The translations under genes and the position numbers were made by a program. From an uncultured Candidatus Saccharibacteria bacterium (lineage in GTDB: Bacteria > Patescibacteriota > Minisyncoccia > Phycocordibacterales > DATGWK01): a DNA stretch of 64,000 nucleotides. Positions within the stretch are counted from its first letter, which is position 1; every line of letters starts with the position of its first letter. This document shows positions 16,441 to 57,467 of this stretch, piece after piece. The stretch lies in NCBI GenBank assembly GCA_964356815.1, contig CAYHIR010000003.1, positions 2,198 through 66,197 of the forward strand, written 5' to 3'. The notes below the pieces were generated by a model that was not told the origin of the DNA, did not search any database, and worked only from the letters and a program-made list of their open reading frames with translations.

Positions 16441-16570
16441 GTGATAAGAAGAACCAAACACCTTCATCGAAATGCACGGAATAAATTTTTGGTGAAATTT
16501 TTCCTCCTGCTCGGCGCCAAGCGCCTCCGCAGAGTCATTTCTCAAAAGGTGTTTGGTTCTTCTCCTCACT
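16441..16570 (-). repeat. Copy A1 of the multi-copy structured intergenic element (core 16474-16536; 17-bp perfect outer stem 16448-16464 / 16546-16562)
   Basis: The core, read on the minus strand, is GACTCTGCGGAGGCGCTTGGCGCCGAGCAGGAGGAAAAATTTCACCAAAAATTTATTCCGTGC. It lies between pilM and pilN inside the operon. Confidence 0.8.
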
Positions 16571-35058: not shown

Positions 35059-35703
35059 CTACTCCCAAATACCGTCCATATTTACATCGTAGAGAATTTG
35101 TTCTTGGATGAGAAGATAGTCGACTAATTCCTCCGGCCGGAACCAAAGTGCCAATTCTTTTTCGGCGTCTTCTGTTGTACCAGAAGCGTGAATCAAATTT
35201 CTGATCGCGCGTTTGTCGGTATCGGACATTGTGTAAGAGTCGAGAACGAAATCGCCACGAATTGTGCCGACGTCTGTAGAAAGCGGCTCTGTGCCACCAG
35301 TAATTTTTCGCACAATCTTCACCGCATGCGCACCTTCCCATGCCATGGCAATGACAGGACCGCTCGTCATATATTTTTTAAGATTTTCTAAAATGACAGC
35401 CGTGATTTCAAACGGATCTTCGCTCGGCGGCGCTTCACCTTTTTCACGCGCCACTTTTATGCGCTTCTCGCCAGTGATGCGTCGCCATTCTGGATCGATT
35501 GTATAATGTTTCTCCACCATATCAGCCGTCGGCACAACCATTTTTATACCCACGAGCTTCAAACCAATGCGTTCATATCTTTTTACAATCTCACCAATAA
35601 GTGTACGCTGAATGCCGTCTGGCTTCACTACCACAAGTGTACGTTCTTTTTTCGGATGCGGTCGTCCGTCTGTTTGTCCGCCTTGTTGAATACTTTGAGT
35701 CAT
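35059..35703 (-). CDS. ndk: Nucleoside diphosphate kinase with an internal insertion
   Basis: ERTLVVVKPDG ... NLIHASGTTEDAEKE (the NxxH active-site His region). Confidence 0.8.
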   Translation of the reverse strand: MTQSIQQGGQTDGRPHPKKERTLVVVKPDGIQRTLIGEIVKRYERIGLKLVGIKMVVPTADMVEKHYTIDPEWRRITGEKRIKVAREKGEAPPSEDPFEITAVILENLKKYMTSGPVIAMAWEGAHAVKIVRKITGGTEPLSTDVGTIRGDFVLDSYTMSDTDKRAIRNLIHASGTTEDAEKELALWFRPEELVDYLLIQEQILYDVNMDGIWE

Positions 35704-35780
35704 GGGAAAAAGTATAAACTAAACCACCTATAAAACAAAACTCTCCCAACAAAACAAATTGGTGGGAGAGAAATGAAATG

Positions 35781-35909
35781 ATTTGCGAGACAGCGAAAGC
35801 AAAGCCGTTCTCACGATTCCACCTGTTGCCAGGATTGTCGTAAAACGCGTTCAGCTTGCGACCAACATCGTTGCGATTCGCACCGAGAAGGTTCGGGTTG
35901 CCGTCTGAA
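35781..35909 (-). repeat. Orphan DGR template-repeat-like element (TR2), cognate to VR2 at 36275..36403
   Basis: It is 129 bp with about 80% identity to the 3' end of gene 36265..37017. Its minus-strand translation is Asn-rich (SDGNPNLLGANRNDVGRKLNAFYDNPGNRWNRENGFAFAV). 17 of 26 differences from VR2 are at coding-strand adenines. Confidence 0.6.
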
Positions 35910-36187
35910 ATGTACAGAATGCCATCCGTATCACTACCCAGCGTGAAAGCCTAAGAATCTTTGGCTGATCTTCTGGGTTGTCTGCGGGGGTTCCGCCTGT
36001 TTTCGGCATCATAATGCCTTAGCACTCTGCACCAAGTAACTTCATTTTTTGAAGTGTCTACATAAGCCCTCCGTCCGAAACCTTAATCGCGGACGCTCTC
36101 AGCTTATGGATACTGGATTCGGTAGCGGGAAACCTTGATCTCCCGCGTATTCACCTACTACCACGGAAGATTTTAGCATAAAAAAAG

Positions 36188-36220
36188 AGCCCGATATCAC
36201 CATGTGTGATGTCGGGCTCG
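36188..36220 (-). other. GC-rich 14-bp-stem hairpin plus T-run immediately downstream of VR2 (DGR target-recognition hairpin or terminator)
   Basis: On the minus strand: GAGCCCGACATCAC-acatg-GTGATATCGGGCTC, followed by TTTTTTT. Confidence 0.55.
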
Positions 36221-36264
36221 AGGACTAAGGTCAAAGGGTCCAAGAGAACCGAGTGATCAAGTGT

Positions 36265-37017
36265 CTAAGCACAAACTTGCGAGACAACAAAAGCGAAGCC
36301 ATCCTCACGACCCCACCCGTAGCCAGGCCAGGCGTAGAACGCGCTCAGCCTACGACCATCGCCGTCGCGACCCGCACCGAGAAGGCTCGGGTAGCCGTCT
36401 GAACCTTTGATGGTGTCGTGCATTGCGATGATCCACCACAAACCCATGGCTTTGATCTCTTCATCCGAGTAGTTTGCTCGTATGAGACATGCGAGCTCGG
36501 CATTCGGGGTGCTCCAGCCACGCTTCTGGCCATCGGCACGAATGTTCTCTGTGGTTCGCAGAGTGTCGGAAAAAAGTTCTCCTTTGAGCACGGCGACACG
36601 GTAGGTCACATTGTTCGTTGTCTTGAAGCTGGGTGAACGAAGAACGAATTCGGCTTCAGAACCAATGCTGTACCCATTCTCCTTGAACCAGGTGATCCAC
36701 TCCTCTCCGGTCTTGCCGTTTGAGGTGACCGAGAAGTAGATGACGCCGTCTTCCTCACGCCAGCGAAGAGCTGGTGTTGAAACCACCAATTCACCACTCG
36801 CAAGCCGATGAACAGCATCAAGTCCTCCAACCCTCTGAATGAGTCGCTCGAGAAGATCGTCTTCGCCGCGGAGAAACCTCTTGATGTCGCTCAGCCAACG
36901 ATCACCATCAATACCGGCCAACCTCAAAGCGATGTCGATGAAGATGCCGAGCTTGGACTCTTCCAATCCACCAATGGCCATAAAAACCTTGCCGAGCATG
37001 CTGTCTCTTGCTTGCAT
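36265..37017 (-). CDS. Putative DGR variable protein (C-type-lectin-fold-like C-terminus) carrying VR2 at 36275..36403
   Basis: 250 aa. The C-terminus is ...SDGYPSLLGAGRDGDGRRLSAFYAWPGYGWGREDGFAFVVSQVCA. The VR ends 8 nt before the stop. The gene is GC-rich relative to its surroundings. Confidence 0.55.
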   Translation of the reverse strand: MQARDSMLGKVFMAIGGLEESKLGIFIDIALRLAGIDGDRWLSDIKRFLRGEDDLLERLIQRVGGLDAVHRLASGELVVSTPALRWREEDGVIYFSVTSNGKTGEEWITWFKENGYSIGSEAEFVLRSPSFKTTNNVTYRVAVLKGELFSDTLRTTENIRADGQKRGWSTPNAELACLIRANYSDEEIKAMGLWWIIAMHDTIKGSDGYPSLLGAGRDGDGRRLSAFYAWPGYGWGREDGFAFVVSQVCA

Positions 37018-37116
37018 GGTCAGCTCCTTTCTGAAATGAGTCTTACTGTCAGCACAACGTGTGCCGAGAGCAAGACTCTGACAAAGAACTACCCGTAAAT
37101 AATATCACAAACTACC

Positions 37117-37932
37117 CTATCTTGTCAACACCTCCGGCCCGTCCTCCCCAATCACAATAGTATGTTCAAAATGTGCCGAGCGGCGGCCGTCTTTGGTGCG
37201 CACAGTGTAGCCATCTTTGCGGTCGAAAACTACGGCGTCGGTGCCCTCGTTGAGCATCGGCTCTATGGCAATCACCATTCCCGGCTTTAGAAGTGCGCCC
37301 TCGCCACGGCGGCCGGTATTGGGCACGTAAGGGTCTTCATGAACGGCATAGCCCACGCCATGGCCCGCGAGCTCTTCTGCCAGGCCGAAGCCGAGCGGCC
37401 GCACAAAGCTCTCCACTGCTTCGCCAATGTCGCCCACTCGTCCGCCTGGTTGGGCCGCGGCAATGGCTTTGTCTAACGCTTCGCGCGTGGCTTTCACAAG
37501 CGCGCGAGCTTTTTCTAGACATTTCGCATCGCCCGCGCTTTTGCCGCCAGCTTTACCCACAATCACCGTCACCGCCGCGTCTGTTATGAGGCCTGCATGA
37601 ATGAGTCCCATATCAACGGCCACGATGTCACCTTCTTTAAAAATTTTATCGGCTGTGGGAATGCCGTGCACGATTTCATCGTTTACTGAAATGCAGACGC
37701 TACCCGGAAAAGGTCGCGCCGCGCCGTCGGGTTGATAGCCGAGAAAAGCTGGTGCGTCTTCTTCGCCGCGTTCGTCTCTACCTGCTTTCACAAGCTCCGC
37801 GGCCAAACGGTCGATATCAGCCGCTGAGACGCCGGGCTTCACCTCGCTCGCCAAGCGCTTCAAAATAGCCGCCAAACGCCGGCCACCCTCTCGGAGAAGA
37901 ACGATTTCTTCTGGAGTTTTAATGGTTATCAT
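37117..37932 (-). CDS. map: Methionine aminopeptidase type I
   Basis: 271 aa with the pita-bread fold and metal-ligand residues (D, D, H, E, E pattern; AHFEHTIVI). Confidence 0.9.
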   Translation of the reverse strand: MITIKTPEEIVLLREGGRRLAAILKRLASEVKPGVSAADIDRLAAELVKAGRDERGEEDAPAFLGYQPDGAARPFPGSVCISVNDEIVHGIPTADKIFKEGDIVAVDMGLIHAGLITDAAVTVIVGKAGGKSAGDAKCLEKARALVKATREALDKAIAAAQPGGRVGDIGEAVESFVRPLGFGLAEELAGHGVGYAVHEDPYVPNTGRRGEGALLKPGMVIAIEPMLNEGTDAVVFDRKDGYTVRTKDGRRSAHFEHTIVIGEDGPEVLTR

Positions 37933-37941
37933 GTGGAGACA

Positions 37942-38538
37942 CTACATGAGCGGCGCGATGCGGTCAATAATTTCTTTATACACCTCGGAAATCGTCTGAT
38001 CGCCATTGATGTGGAGAAATTTGAAATGTGGATTTTGCTTATAGTATTCAATTGTTGGTACAACTTCTTTTTCGTACCAATCCAATCTGTTCTGAATTCT
38101 TTCTGGGGTAACATCATCGAGACGTCCACGCGCGGTGAGACGAGTATGAGAAACATCATTATGAATATCAAGATAAATCACAAAAGGTTTCATCTTATAA
38201 AACAAAAGAGCTGACTCAAGCACTTGAGCTTCCAAAAAAAGACGCGGTGACCCATCAAAAATAATATGCTCTTCACCTGTCAGATCTTCCACAAAATCAG
38301 TGACCCATGTCCAGACAGCTAAGAACGCTGGAAAAATACCACTCCTGTCATAGATTTCTTTTGAGAGCTTACTCGTAAGGGTCGCACCAGTAATAAGTTT
38401 TCGAAACTTAAAACCCGTTTCCTCATAGCGAATTTTTCGCGACGGGTCGGCGGCCGCCAAATACTCCTCTAAAAGTTTGCCCTGCGTCCCCTTCCCGCAA
38501 CCCGATCGGCCGATGAAGATGAATGTTTGAGGTGTCAT
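37942..38538 (-). CDS. adk: Adenylate kinase (short form)
   Basis: P-loop GRSGCGKGTQ, FDGSPR. secY-adk-map synteny supports the call. Confidence 0.85.
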   Translation of the reverse strand: MTPQTFIFIGRSGCGKGTQGKLLEEYLAAADPSRKIRYEETGFKFRKLITGATLTSKLSKEIYDRSGIFPAFLAVWTWVTDFVEDLTGEEHIIFDGSPRLFLEAQVLESALLFYKMKPFVIYLDIHNDVSHTRLTARGRLDDVTPERIQNRLDWYEKEVVPTIEYYKQNPHFKFLHINGDQTISEVYKEIIDRIAPLM

Positions 38539-38765
38539 GTGTAAATTATAACAGAGCTTGCAATTTTAACTCTTTTGGTATATAGTACTCGCATCACTAC
38601 GAAAAAGACCCTTACGCGGTTCCGTCCGCGTCGGGGGCTTTTTCATTTTCAGCCTCTAATTCTAATATGGAGCGTTGGTCATTTATGTACGCAATATTCA
38701 CCCGAACTTTTTCTTCTAATTTGTCGATAGGTAATTCCATAAAAAATGGAAAAATAACTTAGTGA

Positions 38766-40034
38766 TTAGTATTCGCGAATAGAAATCTGCGCGTCGATTT
38801 TCTTGATGAGATCAATCACAACAGAGACAACGATAAGCAGAGCCGTACCACCGATAGAAAGCGCGGTAATACCAGTGAGCGCGCGCATAGCGAGTGGCAA
38901 AACGGCGATGAGACCGAGGAAAATGGCACCGACGAGTGTGAGGCGCACTAAAATCTTAGCAATGTGGGCAGAGGTCGATTGACCGGGGCGCACGCCAGGA
39001 ATAAACGCACCGCTTTTTTGCAAATTTTCTGAGATGGCGTTTGGATCGAAAGTGACGGCGGTGTAGAAATATGTAAAAGCAAAAACCAAAACGAAATAAA
39101 GACCGGCGTAGATCCAAGGATTATTTAAGAAACCAAGAACAACCGTAGAGACTGTCTGAACGGCGGCAACATTCACCTTCGATAAAAACTGAAAAATCAT
39201 CGTTGGGAAAAGCAAAATGGAAAGTGCAAAAATAATCGGGATGACACCAGCTTGATTGACGCGTAGTGGCAAATAAGTAGAAACGCCACCATACACCTTT
39301 CCACCACGCACACGCTTAGCGTAGGTAACAGGAATCGGCCGCTCAGCTTCGGTGACAATCACCACGCCGAGGATTACAAGAACGGTAGCCACCAAGAAAG
39401 CTAAGTAGAGAGGAATTTGCGCTGGCTCAAATGTGAATGTGAATTGAGAAATGGCGACCGGCAAACTAGCGACGATACCGGCAAAGATAATGAGCGACAT
39501 ACCGTTGCCAATACCAAACTCGCTGATGAGTTCACCGATCCACATAAGAAGCAGAGCGCCAGCCACGATGACCGCAATGTTTACGATGTAGCCAAAGGTT
39601 GTGAGACCACTAATGACGCCCTGATTGGCCAAAAGTGCCAAGAAGCTGTAACCCTGAATGATAGCCAAAGGCACAGTGAGCAAACGAGAATAATTGGCAA
39701 ATTTTCGGCGACCAAGCTCCCCTTCTTCGTGATATATCGCCTTAAGCTTTGGCGACATGATGGTCATGAGTTGCATGATGATAGACGCAGTAATGTACGG
39801 ACCAACACCGAGCATCATGATGGAAAGATTGGAAAGACCACCGCCAGAAAAAATATTCAAAAGACCAAAAAACTGATTACCCGCAAGGAAACTCTGAAGA
39901 CGAAAAACGTCTACGCCAGGGATTGGAATTGCGGCGAAGAGTCGGAACACAACCAAAGCCGCGAGCGTAAAGAAAATTCGCTTGCGGAGTATTTTATCGC
40001 CTATAAGTAGATTAAATTTTGCTAGTGCGTTCAT
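38766..40034 (-). CDS. secY: Preprotein translocase subunit SecY
   Basis: 422 aa with 10 TM segments and SecY signature regions. Confidence 0.95.
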   Translation of the reverse strand: MNALAKFNLLIGDKILRKRIFFTLAALVVFRLFAAIPIPGVDVFRLQSFLAGNQFFGLLNIFSGGGLSNLSIMMLGVGPYITASIIMQLMTIMSPKLKAIYHEEGELGRRKFANYSRLLTVPLAIIQGYSFLALLANQGVISGLTTFGYIVNIAVIVAGALLLMWIGELISEFGIGNGMSLIIFAGIVASLPVAISQFTFTFEPAQIPLYLAFLVATVLVILGVVIVTEAERPIPVTYAKRVRGGKVYGGVSTYLPLRVNQAGVIPIIFALSILLFPTMIFQFLSKVNVAAVQTVSTVVLGFLNNPWIYAGLYFVLVFAFTYFYTAVTFDPNAISENLQKSGAFIPGVRPGQSTSAHIAKILVRLTLVGAIFLGLIAVLPLAMRALTGITALSIGGTALLIVVSVVIDLIKKIDAQISIREY

Positions 40035-52812: not shown

Positions 52813-52820
52813 AACGGCAA

Positions 52821-53952: not shown

Positions 53953-54056
53953 TATTTTGTGTTTTGAGAAATGACTCTGCGGAGGCGCTTGGCGCCGAGC
54001 GGGAGGAAAATTTTCAGCAGAAAATTATTCCGTGCATTTCGAAGAACACAAAAGGT
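53953..54056 (+). repeat. Copy A3 of the structured intergenic element (core 53973-54035), abutting the fusA stop
   Basis: The core is GACTCTGCGGAGGCGCTTGGCGCCGAGCGGGAGGAAAATTTTCAGCAGAAAATTATTCCGTGC. The arms TTTTGTGTTTTGAGAAAT / ATTTCGAAGAACACAAAAG pair, including G·U positions. Confidence 0.8.
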
Positions 54057-54061
54057 TTTCT

Positions 54062-56203
54062 TTACTTTCTCGCCTCCACTATCTCAGTCTCCACGTTCTT
54101 TGGTACAACCTCGTAATGATCAAATTCCATAGTAGCGTTACCGCGGCCTTCAGTCATAGAGCGGAGCTGGGTGGTGTAGCCGAACATTTCTGAAAGTGGC
54201 ACTTTGGCTCGGATGACTTTGAGCATCCCCCTCTCTTCCATACCTTCTATCTGACCACGCTTGCCTGAAAGTGAGCCGGTGATGTCGCCCATGAATTTCT
54301 CAGGGAAAACAACTTCGATTTTCATAATCGGCTCGAGAATAACGGGCCGCGCACGCTTAGCGGCATCTTGAAAAGCTTTCGAAGCGGCGATTTTGTAAGC
54401 AATTTCAGATGAGTCGACATCGTGAGAGGAGCCGAAAGTGAGCTCGGCAGAAATGTTGACCATTTTGAAACCGGCGACGATACCGCGATCGAGTGCTTCG
54501 CGAATACCTTTTTCAACGGCTGGAATAAACTCTTGAGGAATAACACCACCTTTGATGGAGTCGATAAATTCGAATTCGTCGTAGCGTTTGACGTTTTTAG
54601 GAATTTTCTTTTCAGGATCGAGAGGCTCGAGCGGCTTGATATTGATAACGACGTGACCGTATTGACCCTTACCTCCAGATTGCTTGATGTATTTGTGCTC
54701 GGCTTCGGCTGTGCCAGTGATGGTTTCTTTGTAGGCTACCTGTGGCTTACCGACATTGGCCTCCACACCGAATTCGCGCTTCATACGATCGATCATAATT
54801 TCGAGATGAAGCTCGCCCATACCAGAAATGAGAGTCTCGAATGTTTCTGGATTGGTTGTAATGTGGAAAGTTGGATCTTCATCGGAAAGTTTCTTGAGGG
54901 CCATACCCATTTTTTCTTGGTCAGCTTTTGTTTTTGGTTCGATGCGAAGAGACACGACCGGCGCGGCGAATTTTATAACATCGAGAATGACAGGATTGTT
55001 TTCGTCACAAAAAGTGTGAGATGTTTTTGCACTCTTGAGGCCCACAGCCGCCGCGATTTCACCCGCGAAAACTTTTTTCACTTCCTCGCGTTTGTCTGCC
55101 TGGAGACGGACGATACGGCCGAGTCGCTCTTTTTCACCTGTAGTGGAATTGTAAATATATGTTCCCGATTCAATCGTGCCAGAATAAACACGGAAGAATG
55201 TGAGTTGACCAACGAAAGGATCGGTCTGCAATTTGAAAGCGAGAGCAGCAAAAGGCTCTTCGTCGCTTGCGTGGCGAATGACCTCTCCACCCGTGCGTGG
55301 ATCGATAGCCACAACAGGTGGAATGTCGAGGGGTGATGGTAGATATTCCACAACGCCGTCGAGTACGAGTTGAACGCCTTTATTTTTGAGCGCAGAGCCG
55401 GCAAAAACCGGAATGAGTTTCACTTCGAGAGTGGCTTTACGAAGCACGCGCTTCAGATCTTCAATGCTCGCCTCTTTACCTTCGAGATAGGCGTGCATCA
55501 TGGTATCGTCGTGTTCAACAATTTTTTCTACGAGCTCAGCGTGATATTTTTTGGCTTCTTCGAGATATTCGGCCGGAATTTCTGCCTCGCGGACATTAAT
55601 ACCCATTTCGCCTTCAAAATAATAGGCCTTCATTTTCATAAGATCGATCACGCCGCTAAAATTTTCCTCAAGACCCATCGGAATTTGCAAACGCACAGCA
55701 TTTTTATTGAGACGATCGAGAATAGACGCATACGAACGCTCGAAGCTCGCGCCCATGCGGTCGAGTTTGTTTATAAAACAGACGCGAGGCACTTTGCCTT
55801 CGTCGGCATAGCGCCAATTGGTTTCAGACTGTGGCTCAACGCCAGCCACGCCGTCAAAGACGACCACTGCGCCGTCTAGCACACGGAGCGAACGCTTCAC
55901 CTCTGCGGTGAAATCGATGTGTCCTGGAGTATCGATGATATTGAAGCGATGCATTTGGGATTTGTCTTCACCCATGTAGGTAGGATTCCAAAAACAAGTA
56001 ATCGCGGCTGCGGTGATGGTGATACCGCGCTCTCTTTCCTGTTCCATCCAATCTGTAACCGTATTACCCTCATGCACTTCGCCGATTTTGTGCGACATAC
56101 CAGTATAGAAAAGCACGCGCTCAGATGTCGTGGTTTTACCCGCATCAATATGCGCAATGATTCCGAAATTTCGAACTTTTTCTAATGGGTAGTCGCGGTT
56201 CAT
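54062..56203 (-). CDS. fusA: Elongation factor G
   Basis: 713 aa with [21 protein letters not shown]. Confidence 0.95.
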
Positions 56204-56307
56204 GAAAATTATTTTTTAGAAATATACTTCTGTCGTGACCGGCGTAGATTTCTAAAACATTAAATTAATAAATTAAATAATAACTTGCCAAATGCTTTAT
56301 CAGTGTA

Positions 56308-56410
56308 GCAAACTTTATTTCTGAGAGACTCTGCGGAGGCGCTTGGCGCCGAGCAGGAGGAAAAATTTCACCAGAAATTTATTCCGTGCTCGAAGAAATA
56401 AAATTTGCGA
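56308..56410 (+). repeat. Copy A4 of the structured intergenic element (core 56327-56389), between rpsG and fusA
   Basis: The core is GACTCTGCGGAGGCGCTTGGCGCCGAGCAGGAGGAAAAATTTCACCAGAAATTTATTCCGTGC. The arms GCAAACTTTATTTCTGAGAG / CTCGAAGAAATAAAATTTGCG pair. Confidence 0.8.
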
Positions 56411-56413
56411 AAC

Positions 56414-56884
56414 TTACCACGCGAAGTGGGCGAACGCCTTATTCGCCTCCGCCATCTTGTGAGTGTTTTCGCGTTTCTTCACAGCCTCACCTTCGTTTTT
56501 GGCAGCCAAAATGATTTCGTCGGCCAAGCGTTCATTCATAGCCGCGCCTTTTCGGCCACGAGCGGCTTCGATAATCCATTTCATAGAAAGAGCAAGACGG
56601 CGCTCTGGTCGTACTTCACGAGGAATTTGATAATTGGCACCACCGACACGGCGAGAGCGCACTTCCATAAGAGGGCCGGTGTTTTTAAGAGCTGTGTCCA
56701 AAACCTCTATAGGATTTTCCGTCTTGGTTTTTTCTTTAATCAAATCGAGGGCTTCATAGACAATAACGCGGGCAGTGTTTTTCTTACCGCTGTACATAAG
56801 GTAGTTTATAAATTTAGCAACTTTCTGAGAACTATATTTATAGTCTGGTTCAAGTGATGCTTTTTTCTTTAATTTTCTTCGCAT
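56414..56884 (-). CDS. rpsG: 30S ribosomal protein S7
   Basis: 156 aa, S7 family. Confidence 0.9.
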   Translation of the reverse strand: MRRKLKKKASLEPDYKYSSQKVAKFINYLMYSGKKNTARVIVYEALDLIKEKTKTENPIEVLDTALKNTGPLMEVRSRRVGGANYQIPREVRPERRLALSMKWIIEAARGRKGAAMNERLADEIILAAKNEGEAVKKRENTHKMAEANKAFAHFAW

Positions 56885-56928
56885 TTTAGTTTAAATTTTG
56901 TAAGCCGGCGTAGATTTGCCAACTAATA

Positions 56929-57348
56929 TTACTCAGCTTTTGCCTTTGGCTTTTTAGCTCCGTACACGCTTCGGCTTGTACGACGACCTTCCACGCCAGT
57001 GGCGTCGAGACGACCGCGAACAATAGTGTAACGAACACCAACGTCTTTCACGCGACCACCGCGAAGCACAACAACTGAATGTTCTTGAAGATTGTGACCA
57101 ACGCCCGGGATGTAGGCAGTAACTTCCATGCCGTTTGTGAGACGAACTCTAGCGATTTTTCGAATAGCGGAGTTTGGCTTTTTAGGAGTTTTCGTTGTGA
57201 CCTTTGTACAAACGCCGCGCTTGAATGGAGATGGGTAGTAGATAGGGCGGTTTTTGAGAACATTAAAACCACGGTTAAGAGCGATCGCTTTAGATTTGCG
57301 GATATTGCTCTTTCGCTTTCGTTTTACTAATTGGTTGATTGTTGACAT
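56929..57348 (-). CDS. rpsL: 30S ribosomal protein S12
   Basis: [14 protein letters not shown] ... [53 protein letters not shown]. Confidence 0.95.
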
Positions 57349-57387
57349 CTATTTGACCGCGCGGCGGCTTTTGGCCGCGCACTTCGA

Positions 57388-57410
57388 TAAAAAAACGAGC
57401 TTAAACTCGT
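57388..57410 (-). terminator. Intrinsic terminator between the DGR RT and rpsL
   Basis: On the minus strand: ACGAGtttaaGCTCGT followed by TTTTTTT. Confidence 0.55.
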
Positions 57411-57467
57411 GGGGACACTCTACTATGGAGAGGAAAATTGTGCAACAGGTTACCTTATATATAGAGA

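Follow-up and report, generated by a model that had tools for sequence, protein, structure and literature searches.

The closest described counterparts of the locus analyzed here are degenerate DGR loci. Thiohalocapsa PB-PSB1 has degenerate DGR loci and uses DGR machinery in trans (Dore et al. 2024, PMC10907252), and isolates of Treponema denticola without a core DGR carry leftover targets (PMC4891356). Two further points of reference concern organization. The architecture B3, TR-(avd)-RT, is described as common in CPR bacteria in the relevant passages of the survey by Wu et al. (2018, PMC5758913). In the DGR RNA of Bordetella phage BPP-1 (avd 3′ end, TR, Sp), the template repeat (TR) lies within structured RNA with a stem-loop just 3′ of it, and the flanking structured RNA is needed by RT-Avd (Handa et al., PMC6182149; bioRxiv 10.1101/2023.10.23.563531).

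We analyzed a 64-kb stretch of DNA (the window) from a contig that is at least 221 kb long. The window holds one complete DGR, DGR1, with the architecture TR-(avd)-RT, and a second repeat pair, TR2 and its variable repeat VR2, at a locus that we call cassette 2 (Table 1). DGR1 and about 40 related loci from other genomes share the B3 order of the survey passages, whereas cassette 2 lacks the (avd)-RT part. Cassette 2 resembles Thiohalocapsa DGRs 1, 3, 4, 5 and 7 and the Treponema leftover targets in that a target whose VR carries A-to-N changes stands at a locus without key machinery (RT, accessory gene), with a complete DGR elsewhere in the same genome. Unlike those cases, it keeps its TR and the whole RNA unit around it, the RT and avd being cleanly deleted, and the complete DGR of the window is of another class in TR, leader and target. 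VR2 also matches no available TR at non-A sites, so diversification in trans is not indicated. No transposons were noticed where the deletion ends. We put at about 75% the probability that cassette 2 is the remnant of a second, once-complete DGR, with its VR frozen and its RT and avd lost by deletion. On that reading it is a case of ordinary retroelement decay and not a new trans-acting system.

Table 1. Features of cassette 2 and DGR1, in window coordinates.
Feature	Position	Strand	Evidence or remarks
ndk, housekeeping gene	35059..35703	-	Pfam NDK E=5e-37; deletion boundary, not part of the DGR
Post-TR element: linker, stem-loop (35741..35770), UUUUGUUUU tract (35732..35740)	35732..35782	-	Terminator-shaped 3′ end of the TR RNA
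avd remnant, ‘KQNSP’ tail codons	35733..35747	+	Comparison with complete loci; antisense to hairpin and T-tract
TR2, template repeat	35781..35909	-	Repeat search, mismatch analysis
TR2-type leader, structured RNA fused 5′ to TR2	35910..36161	-	Profile HMM, covariance model, consensus structure
Extended -10-like box TGCTAAAAT	36170..36178	-	Family alignment; 8 nt upstream of the first base of the leader
Intrinsic terminator of target gene 2	36180..36219	-	13-pair stem (36187..36219, one internal mismatch) and U7; stable fold
Small hairpin GGUUC-UCUU-GGACC	36237..36250	-	Fold and family alignment; just past the target 2 stop
Target gene 2, 250 aa, variable protein of cassette 2	36265..37017	-	Conserved body; C-type-lectin-like fold with VR2 at the C-terminus
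VR2, variable repeat	36275..36403	-	Last 43 codons of target gene 2; 26 differences from TR2, 17 at TR adenines
RT1, sole RT in the window	57468..58517	-	RVT_1 E=4e-22; part of complete DGR1
avd1	58534..58896	+	bAvd E=8.5e-10; DivGenRetAVD E=8e-14; antisense between TR1 and RT1
TR1	58892..59017	-	16 A-site differences and 2 at the extreme 3′ edge
Target gene 1	59306..60226	-	Carries VR1
VR1	59318..59443	-	At the 3′ end of target gene 1; pairs with TR1

The TR2/VR2 pair has the mismatch pattern of a DGR. A repeat search of the window recovered positions 35783-35909 and 36277-36403 as a pair of 127 nt with 80% identity (blastn E=1.4e-28), which bears out the 129-bp copy reported at the 3′ end of the target gene in a first-pass annotation of this DNA; blastn found no further copies of TR2 or VR2 in the window. 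On the coding (minus) strand the repeats differ at 26 of 129 positions, and from TR2 to VR2 the changes are A>G (13), A>T (3), A>C (1), C>T (4), T>C (3), T>A (1) and T>G (1), with no G>A. Seventeen of the 30 adenines of TR2 are changed compared with nine of its 99 other bases (Fisher p=1.8e-7). This bias is strand- and direction-specific: it is gone when the TR and VR roles are swapped (1 of 14 adenines) and on the plus strand (5 of 31). The first-pass annotation had given the same count of adenine differences and had named a loss of the enrichment on re-alignment as grounds for abandoning its DGR interpretation; the enrichment stands. Also as it had described, the nine other differences are mainly at third codon positions (seven, with two at second positions), TR2 codons at the divergent sites are mainly the Asn codons AAC and AAT, and VR2 ends 7–8 nt ahead of the stop codon (8 nt in that annotation) and is followed by a hairpin, the stem of the terminator in Table 1. 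TR and VR of a DGR are expected to be identical at non-A positions apart from minor exceptions, and here nine core non-A positions differ. For comparison, passages of the survey by Wu et al. (2018, PMC5758913) report non-A-to-N differences in 23% of DGRs and up to 11 in one target.

Target gene 2 has the form expected of a DGR target, in which the VR occupies the C-terminus of a protein that folds like a C-type lectin (or Ig domain). The CLec-like C-terminus suggested earlier from the sequence is supported by fold comparison, and the protein retains all residues invariant in its family, though sequence searches of Pfam, NCBIfam and the PDB returned no matches. Among 5.8 billion clustered proteins its nearest relative shares only ~60% identity with it and it is alone in its 90% cluster, which implies that no assembly so far contains a near-identical paralog or a VR variant. 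(The corresponding cluster of target 1 has two members, the second being merely a longer start-codon call.) Contigs from groundwater well H41 at Hainich and a Patescibacteria MAG at NCBI encode the exact target 2 protein. The independent Hainich assemblies (L001-L003, L084-L091) are all at least 99.9% identical, and neither VR2 nor VR1 varies among them, a uniformity that fits active and inactive cassettes alike. Given such close assemblies, we take the divergence between TR2 and VR2 to represent a long time without full homing. VR2 would then be an allele that has become fixed in a C-type-lectin-like protein widespread among Patescibacteria. Three independent assemblies of this population with low coverage (L003, L088, L089) stop within 15 nt of each other, at 36059..36073 in the leader of TR2, and another two (L090, L091) break off inside TR2; these breaks could stem from the low coverage or from a structural variant that the population carries.

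Two elements follow the target gene. The first is the small hairpin just past its stop codon, where an alignment of the region across the target 2 family shows a conserved hairpin. Since a hairpin also follows the VR in Bordetella (PMC3240598), it could, by analogy, be a target-site element. Beyond it lies the intrinsic terminator of the target gene, also kept in place and form in the family.

The interval between VR2 and TR2, whose nature had escaped the first-pass annotation, is not a spacer; most of it is a conserved structured RNA. Across the family this interval is ~330 nt long, and its conserved parts are the terminator, a TGnTAnAAT-like box and a leader of ~220-250 nt that runs into the TR. 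The consensus structure of the leader, obtained with RNAalifold from 19 diverse leaders, has 53 pairs, 37 with compensatory double changes, compared with 11-15 double-change pairs when partners are slid by 1-3 columns. Cells are paired in 97.9% of cases versus 36-52% after the same sliding, and none of 500 shuffles reached the observed values. With the window left out of both builds, a profile HMM matched the leader at 36161..35911 (E=2e-44) and covariance model R1 matched it at 36161..36032 (125.8 bits, E=5e-27). The TR2 leader keeps 52 of the 53 consensus pairs intact and is changed in 7 of 85 conserved columns, inside the range of 0-22 and as well kept as in RT-linked loci; the one broken pair compares with ~3 expected at ~4% drift per lineage, a comparison of little statistical power. 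A search of both cassettes against Rfam at E≤1 gave only sub-threshold chance matches of terminator-like form and no family, the RT-10 motif of Bordetella-type DGR RNA (PMC5737381) included.

The box upstream of the leader keeps its place throughout the family alignment, and similar boxes stand upstream of TR1 and of the TR of L092, a locus linked to a target 1 homolog. From this conserved placement, TGCTAAAAT is probably the promoter of the TR RNA itself. A sigma-70 consensus scan did not call the TR2 promoter; the scan needs a -35 hexamer, and the box is without a matching one. Directly 3′ of the TR, the family has a conserved linker, a covarying stem-loop and then TTTTGTTTT. This post-TR element is conserved in 40 or more cassettes, and at TR2 its hairpin is intact and folds at -16.6 kcal/mol (z=-3.4). 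The TR therefore appears, as far as promoter and terminator functions can be predicted from conserved sequence, to sit in a transcription unit of its own. TR2 is thus flanked, like the TR of a DGR, by RNA elements of the kind that RT-Avd would recognize, and the leader and the post-TR hairpin are the candidates. The arrangement differs from that of BPP-1, where the large structure (Sp, 140 nt) follows the TR and no more than 20 nt are needed ahead of it; the clade studied here has its large structure ahead of the TR, with only ~50 nt after it. In the passages of Wu et al. (PMC5758913) that concern B3, we found neither a structured leader of ~220 nt nor an overlap between avd tail and hairpin. 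Degenerate DGR loci are already known, and the leader is a side observation that deserves follow-up: as a covarying TR leader without an Rfam family, it is a candidate for the RNA recognized by this RT-Avd clade, and its model offers a sensitive route to TRs that is independent of the RT.

Downstream of TR2, the machinery is missing and a trace of it remains. As the first-pass annotation had noted, no RT or avd lies near TR2: the single RT and the single avd of the window are 21 kb off, and tblastn at E≤1 found no others in the 64 kb. In complete loci the avd strand encodes ...MLGGWNGQLxKQNSP...EK*, and in the window it reads V*TKPPI-KQNSP. Only five tail codons of the avd are left, with stop-containing unrelated sequence ahead of them, carried by the TR2-side hairpin, a connection that had likewise gone unnoticed. 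The ATG of ndk is 28 nt past the T-tract, where avd and RT would stand; the RT of family members normally starts ~400 nt past the TR. With the KQNSP codons alone beside TR2 and ndk close by, the junction is a deletion scar.

The same overlap is visible in the complete family loci and at both cassettes of the window, where the C-terminal tail of Avd (KQNSP...EK*) is antisense to the post-TR hairpin and U-tract (58845..58896 and 35732..35782). TR RNA and avd converge and overlap, and one stretch of DNA serves as RNA stem-loop and as coding sequence.

Comparison with related loci places the missing parts. We fetched 80 genomic loci encoding members of the target 2 family. About 40 are complete, with target-VR, terminator, leader RNA, TR, hairpin, antisense avd and RT, and their RTs are 45-50% identical to RT1 by tblastn. 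In target, leader and TR these cassettes are of one type with cassette 2, and by synteny they show where its avd and RT would have been. Several other loci represent intermediate states of loss. Downstream of the TR, L019 and L036 retain a full avd and the first 31-55 RT codons, L060 retains Avd residues 50-136, and L011 the last 32 Avd codons; L010 retains nothing past the hairpin, like the window, and in L056 the hairpin is clipped too. About 30 more loci have the target gene without a detectable TR. Judged from these gene arrangements, these small genomes have repeatedly lost the RT/avd side of such cassettes and kept the diversified target, so DGR surveys that start from the RT will miss many former targets. 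For annotation, the fitting label for cassette 2 is a DGR remnant; it should be entered neither as another active DGR nor as a remote target. Two family loci are arranged differently: in L074 (554..2479) antisense avd and RT come straight after the target, without an intervening TR or leader, and in L026 (5131..8411) a family target lies downstream of an RT with no matching TR.

To gauge drift since the last homing, we counted non-A mismatches strictly inside the TR core. Among 35 RT-linked cassettes there were none in 24, one in six, two in four and 13 in a single locus (L059); RT-less cassettes of other genomes have 0-2. Cassette 2 of the window has nine, spread over core positions 36-110. 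When polarized against 40 family TRs, ~4-5 of the nine fall on TR2 and ~4-5 on VR2, though individual assignments are uncertain, since third-position sites vary in the family; those assigned to TR2 include an A>T (position 38) and a C>T (position 60). With non-A changes on both copies, drift after the last complete homing event has affected TR2 as well as VR2, as expected of independent drift in a remnant DGR once homing is lost. A second drifted pair, in L059 (JAQUHX010000022.1, 2028..4499), has an intact-looking avd and RT and yet 13 core non-A mismatches, mostly third-position transitions; an adjacent RT is no guarantee of a clean pattern.

These observations fit a simple sequence of events. 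Cassette 2 would once have been complete, in the order target-VR, terminator, promoter-leader-TR-hairpin, antisense avd and RT. On the established DGR mechanism, its RT and Avd would have copied the TR RNA into cDNA with misincorporation at adenines, and replacement of VR2 by this cDNA would have produced the 17 A-site differences. A deletion ending just past the TR hairpin then took the RT and nearly all of avd and brought ndk next to the hairpin, as the scar shows. Afterwards TR2 and VR2 each gained ordinary substitutions, ~4-5 apiece and mainly silent in VR2. What is left would be a frozen allele of a still-conserved C-type-lectin-like protein, together with a TR RNA unit that is structurally intact and has no cognate enzyme adjacent.

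The first-pass annotation had offered two readings, a formerly active target that is now drifting and a target serviced in trans by the RT at 57.5 kb. The former gains from the avd scar, the deletion series, the nine non-A mismatches against 0-2 elsewhere and the split of the drift between both copies. The latter, in which RT1 and Avd1 would still act on cassette 2 from 21 kb away and one enzyme would use two TR RNAs, has lost ground to the non-A drift, to the position of RT1 in a sister lineage and to the different leader, and we consider it unlikely. It could draw on a TR2 RNA unit that is complete from promoter-like box through leader and TR to terminator hairpin, on an RT1 and Avd1 that look intact and a DGR1 pattern that is clean and A-only, and on the use of DGR machinery in trans elsewhere, as parts of two reports describe (PMC10907252, PMC5758913). 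However, nine non-A differences that arose on both copies persist and one full homing would erase them, and servicing by RT1 is therefore not supported. The relationships of RT1 point the same way. It shares a broad clade with the RTs that usually accompany TR2-type cassettes, but its identity to the 34 such RTs is 46-57%, compared with 50-100% (median 63%) among themselves, which places it beside the group as a sister or outlier lineage. Its closest characterized relative is instead the RT of L092 (63%), whose leader aligns with the TR1 leader – a comparison of two sequences, as the target 1 family has seven proteins and one usable locus. The TR2-type HMM finds no match at TR1. The second-best match of covariance model R1 in the whole window is the first hairpin of the TR1 leader, but it scores 14 bits (E=0.18) and covers that one 5′ hairpin only, the P2 domain being deleted. 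There is no sequence relationship between TR1 and TR2 or between the target 1 and target 2 proteins; the two TRs do share a similar ending in a stem-loop and U-tract. By these comparisons the TR2 RNA appears not to be of the same recognition class as RT1’s own TR RNA, and cross-recognition is unlikely.

An enzyme or template from outside the window could take the place of RT1. Our RT search covered the 64 kb of the window, and another RT could exist on the rest of its contig, which is at least 221 kb long; remote targets are common in DGRs according to passages of Wu et al. (PMC5758913). A TR2-type DGR elsewhere might thus supply a cognate RT and Avd for the TR2 RNA, whose leader is well preserved, or another TR might template VR2. 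We regard either version as improbable: non-A differences should not persist if TR2 acted on VR2, the canonical position of TR2 next to VR2 and the avd scar marks it as the cognate template, and the protein searches described above, with a nearest relative at ~60% and a 90% cluster of one, yielded no close relative of target 2. Preservation of the TR2 leader would also fit continued function, and some of the clean, A-only RT-less cassettes in other genomes may be used in trans. A more speculative variant, which we hold to be doubtful, builds on these two points. The template would be a self-contained unit that outlives its RT as a ‘satellite’ cassette usable by an RT and Avd elsewhere, and clean RT-less loci such as L010, L011, L056 and L060 would be its active form; cassette 2 might then be kept by occasional mobilization, by RT1/Avd1 or an outside RT, or by templating another target, too rarely to erase the consensus drift. 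Least probable by far is an ordinary gene-fragment duplication with an adenine bias arising by chance. The distance of 21 kb to any RT or avd and the nine of 26 differences that are not at adenines would suit it, but the bias (p=2e-7) vanishes on the other strand and in the other direction, 13 A>G changes face no G>A, an avd remnant lies beside TR2, and the same target family stands with the same TR, leader and hairpin beside avd-RT in about 40 other genomes. These comparative data refute a duplication, and loss of the RT and avd from a once-complete DGR remains our preferred reading.

The avd of DGR1 at first appeared truncated. Its listed ORF (86 aa, TTG start at 58636) is shorter than its homologs, but we rejected truncation: the frame is open to 58489, and in-frame homology to other Avds reaches ~58534-58567 without any ATG, GTG or TTG. 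This suggests a non-canonical start codon, possibly CTG, as called for the avd of L092.

Cassette 2 sits between map (37117..37932) and ndk, at the end of a ribosomal-protein/secY/adk/map cluster. Both cassettes of the window adjoin clusters of translation genes, map/adk/secY at cassette 2 (35059..40034) and rpsL/rpsG/fusA at DGR1 (54062..60972), and family members elsewhere (L013, L042, L043) also lie beside secY/adk/map. Ribosomal protein genes are reported inside five CPR DGRs in part of the survey by Wu et al. (PMC5758913). A 63-nt intergenic repeat (GACTCTGCGGAGGCGCTTGGCGCCGAGC...) flanks fusA (53973..54035 and 56327..56389, 94% identity) and has a third copy at 16474..16536, and positions 52819 and 53877 carry copies of a 41-nt terminator-like repeat.
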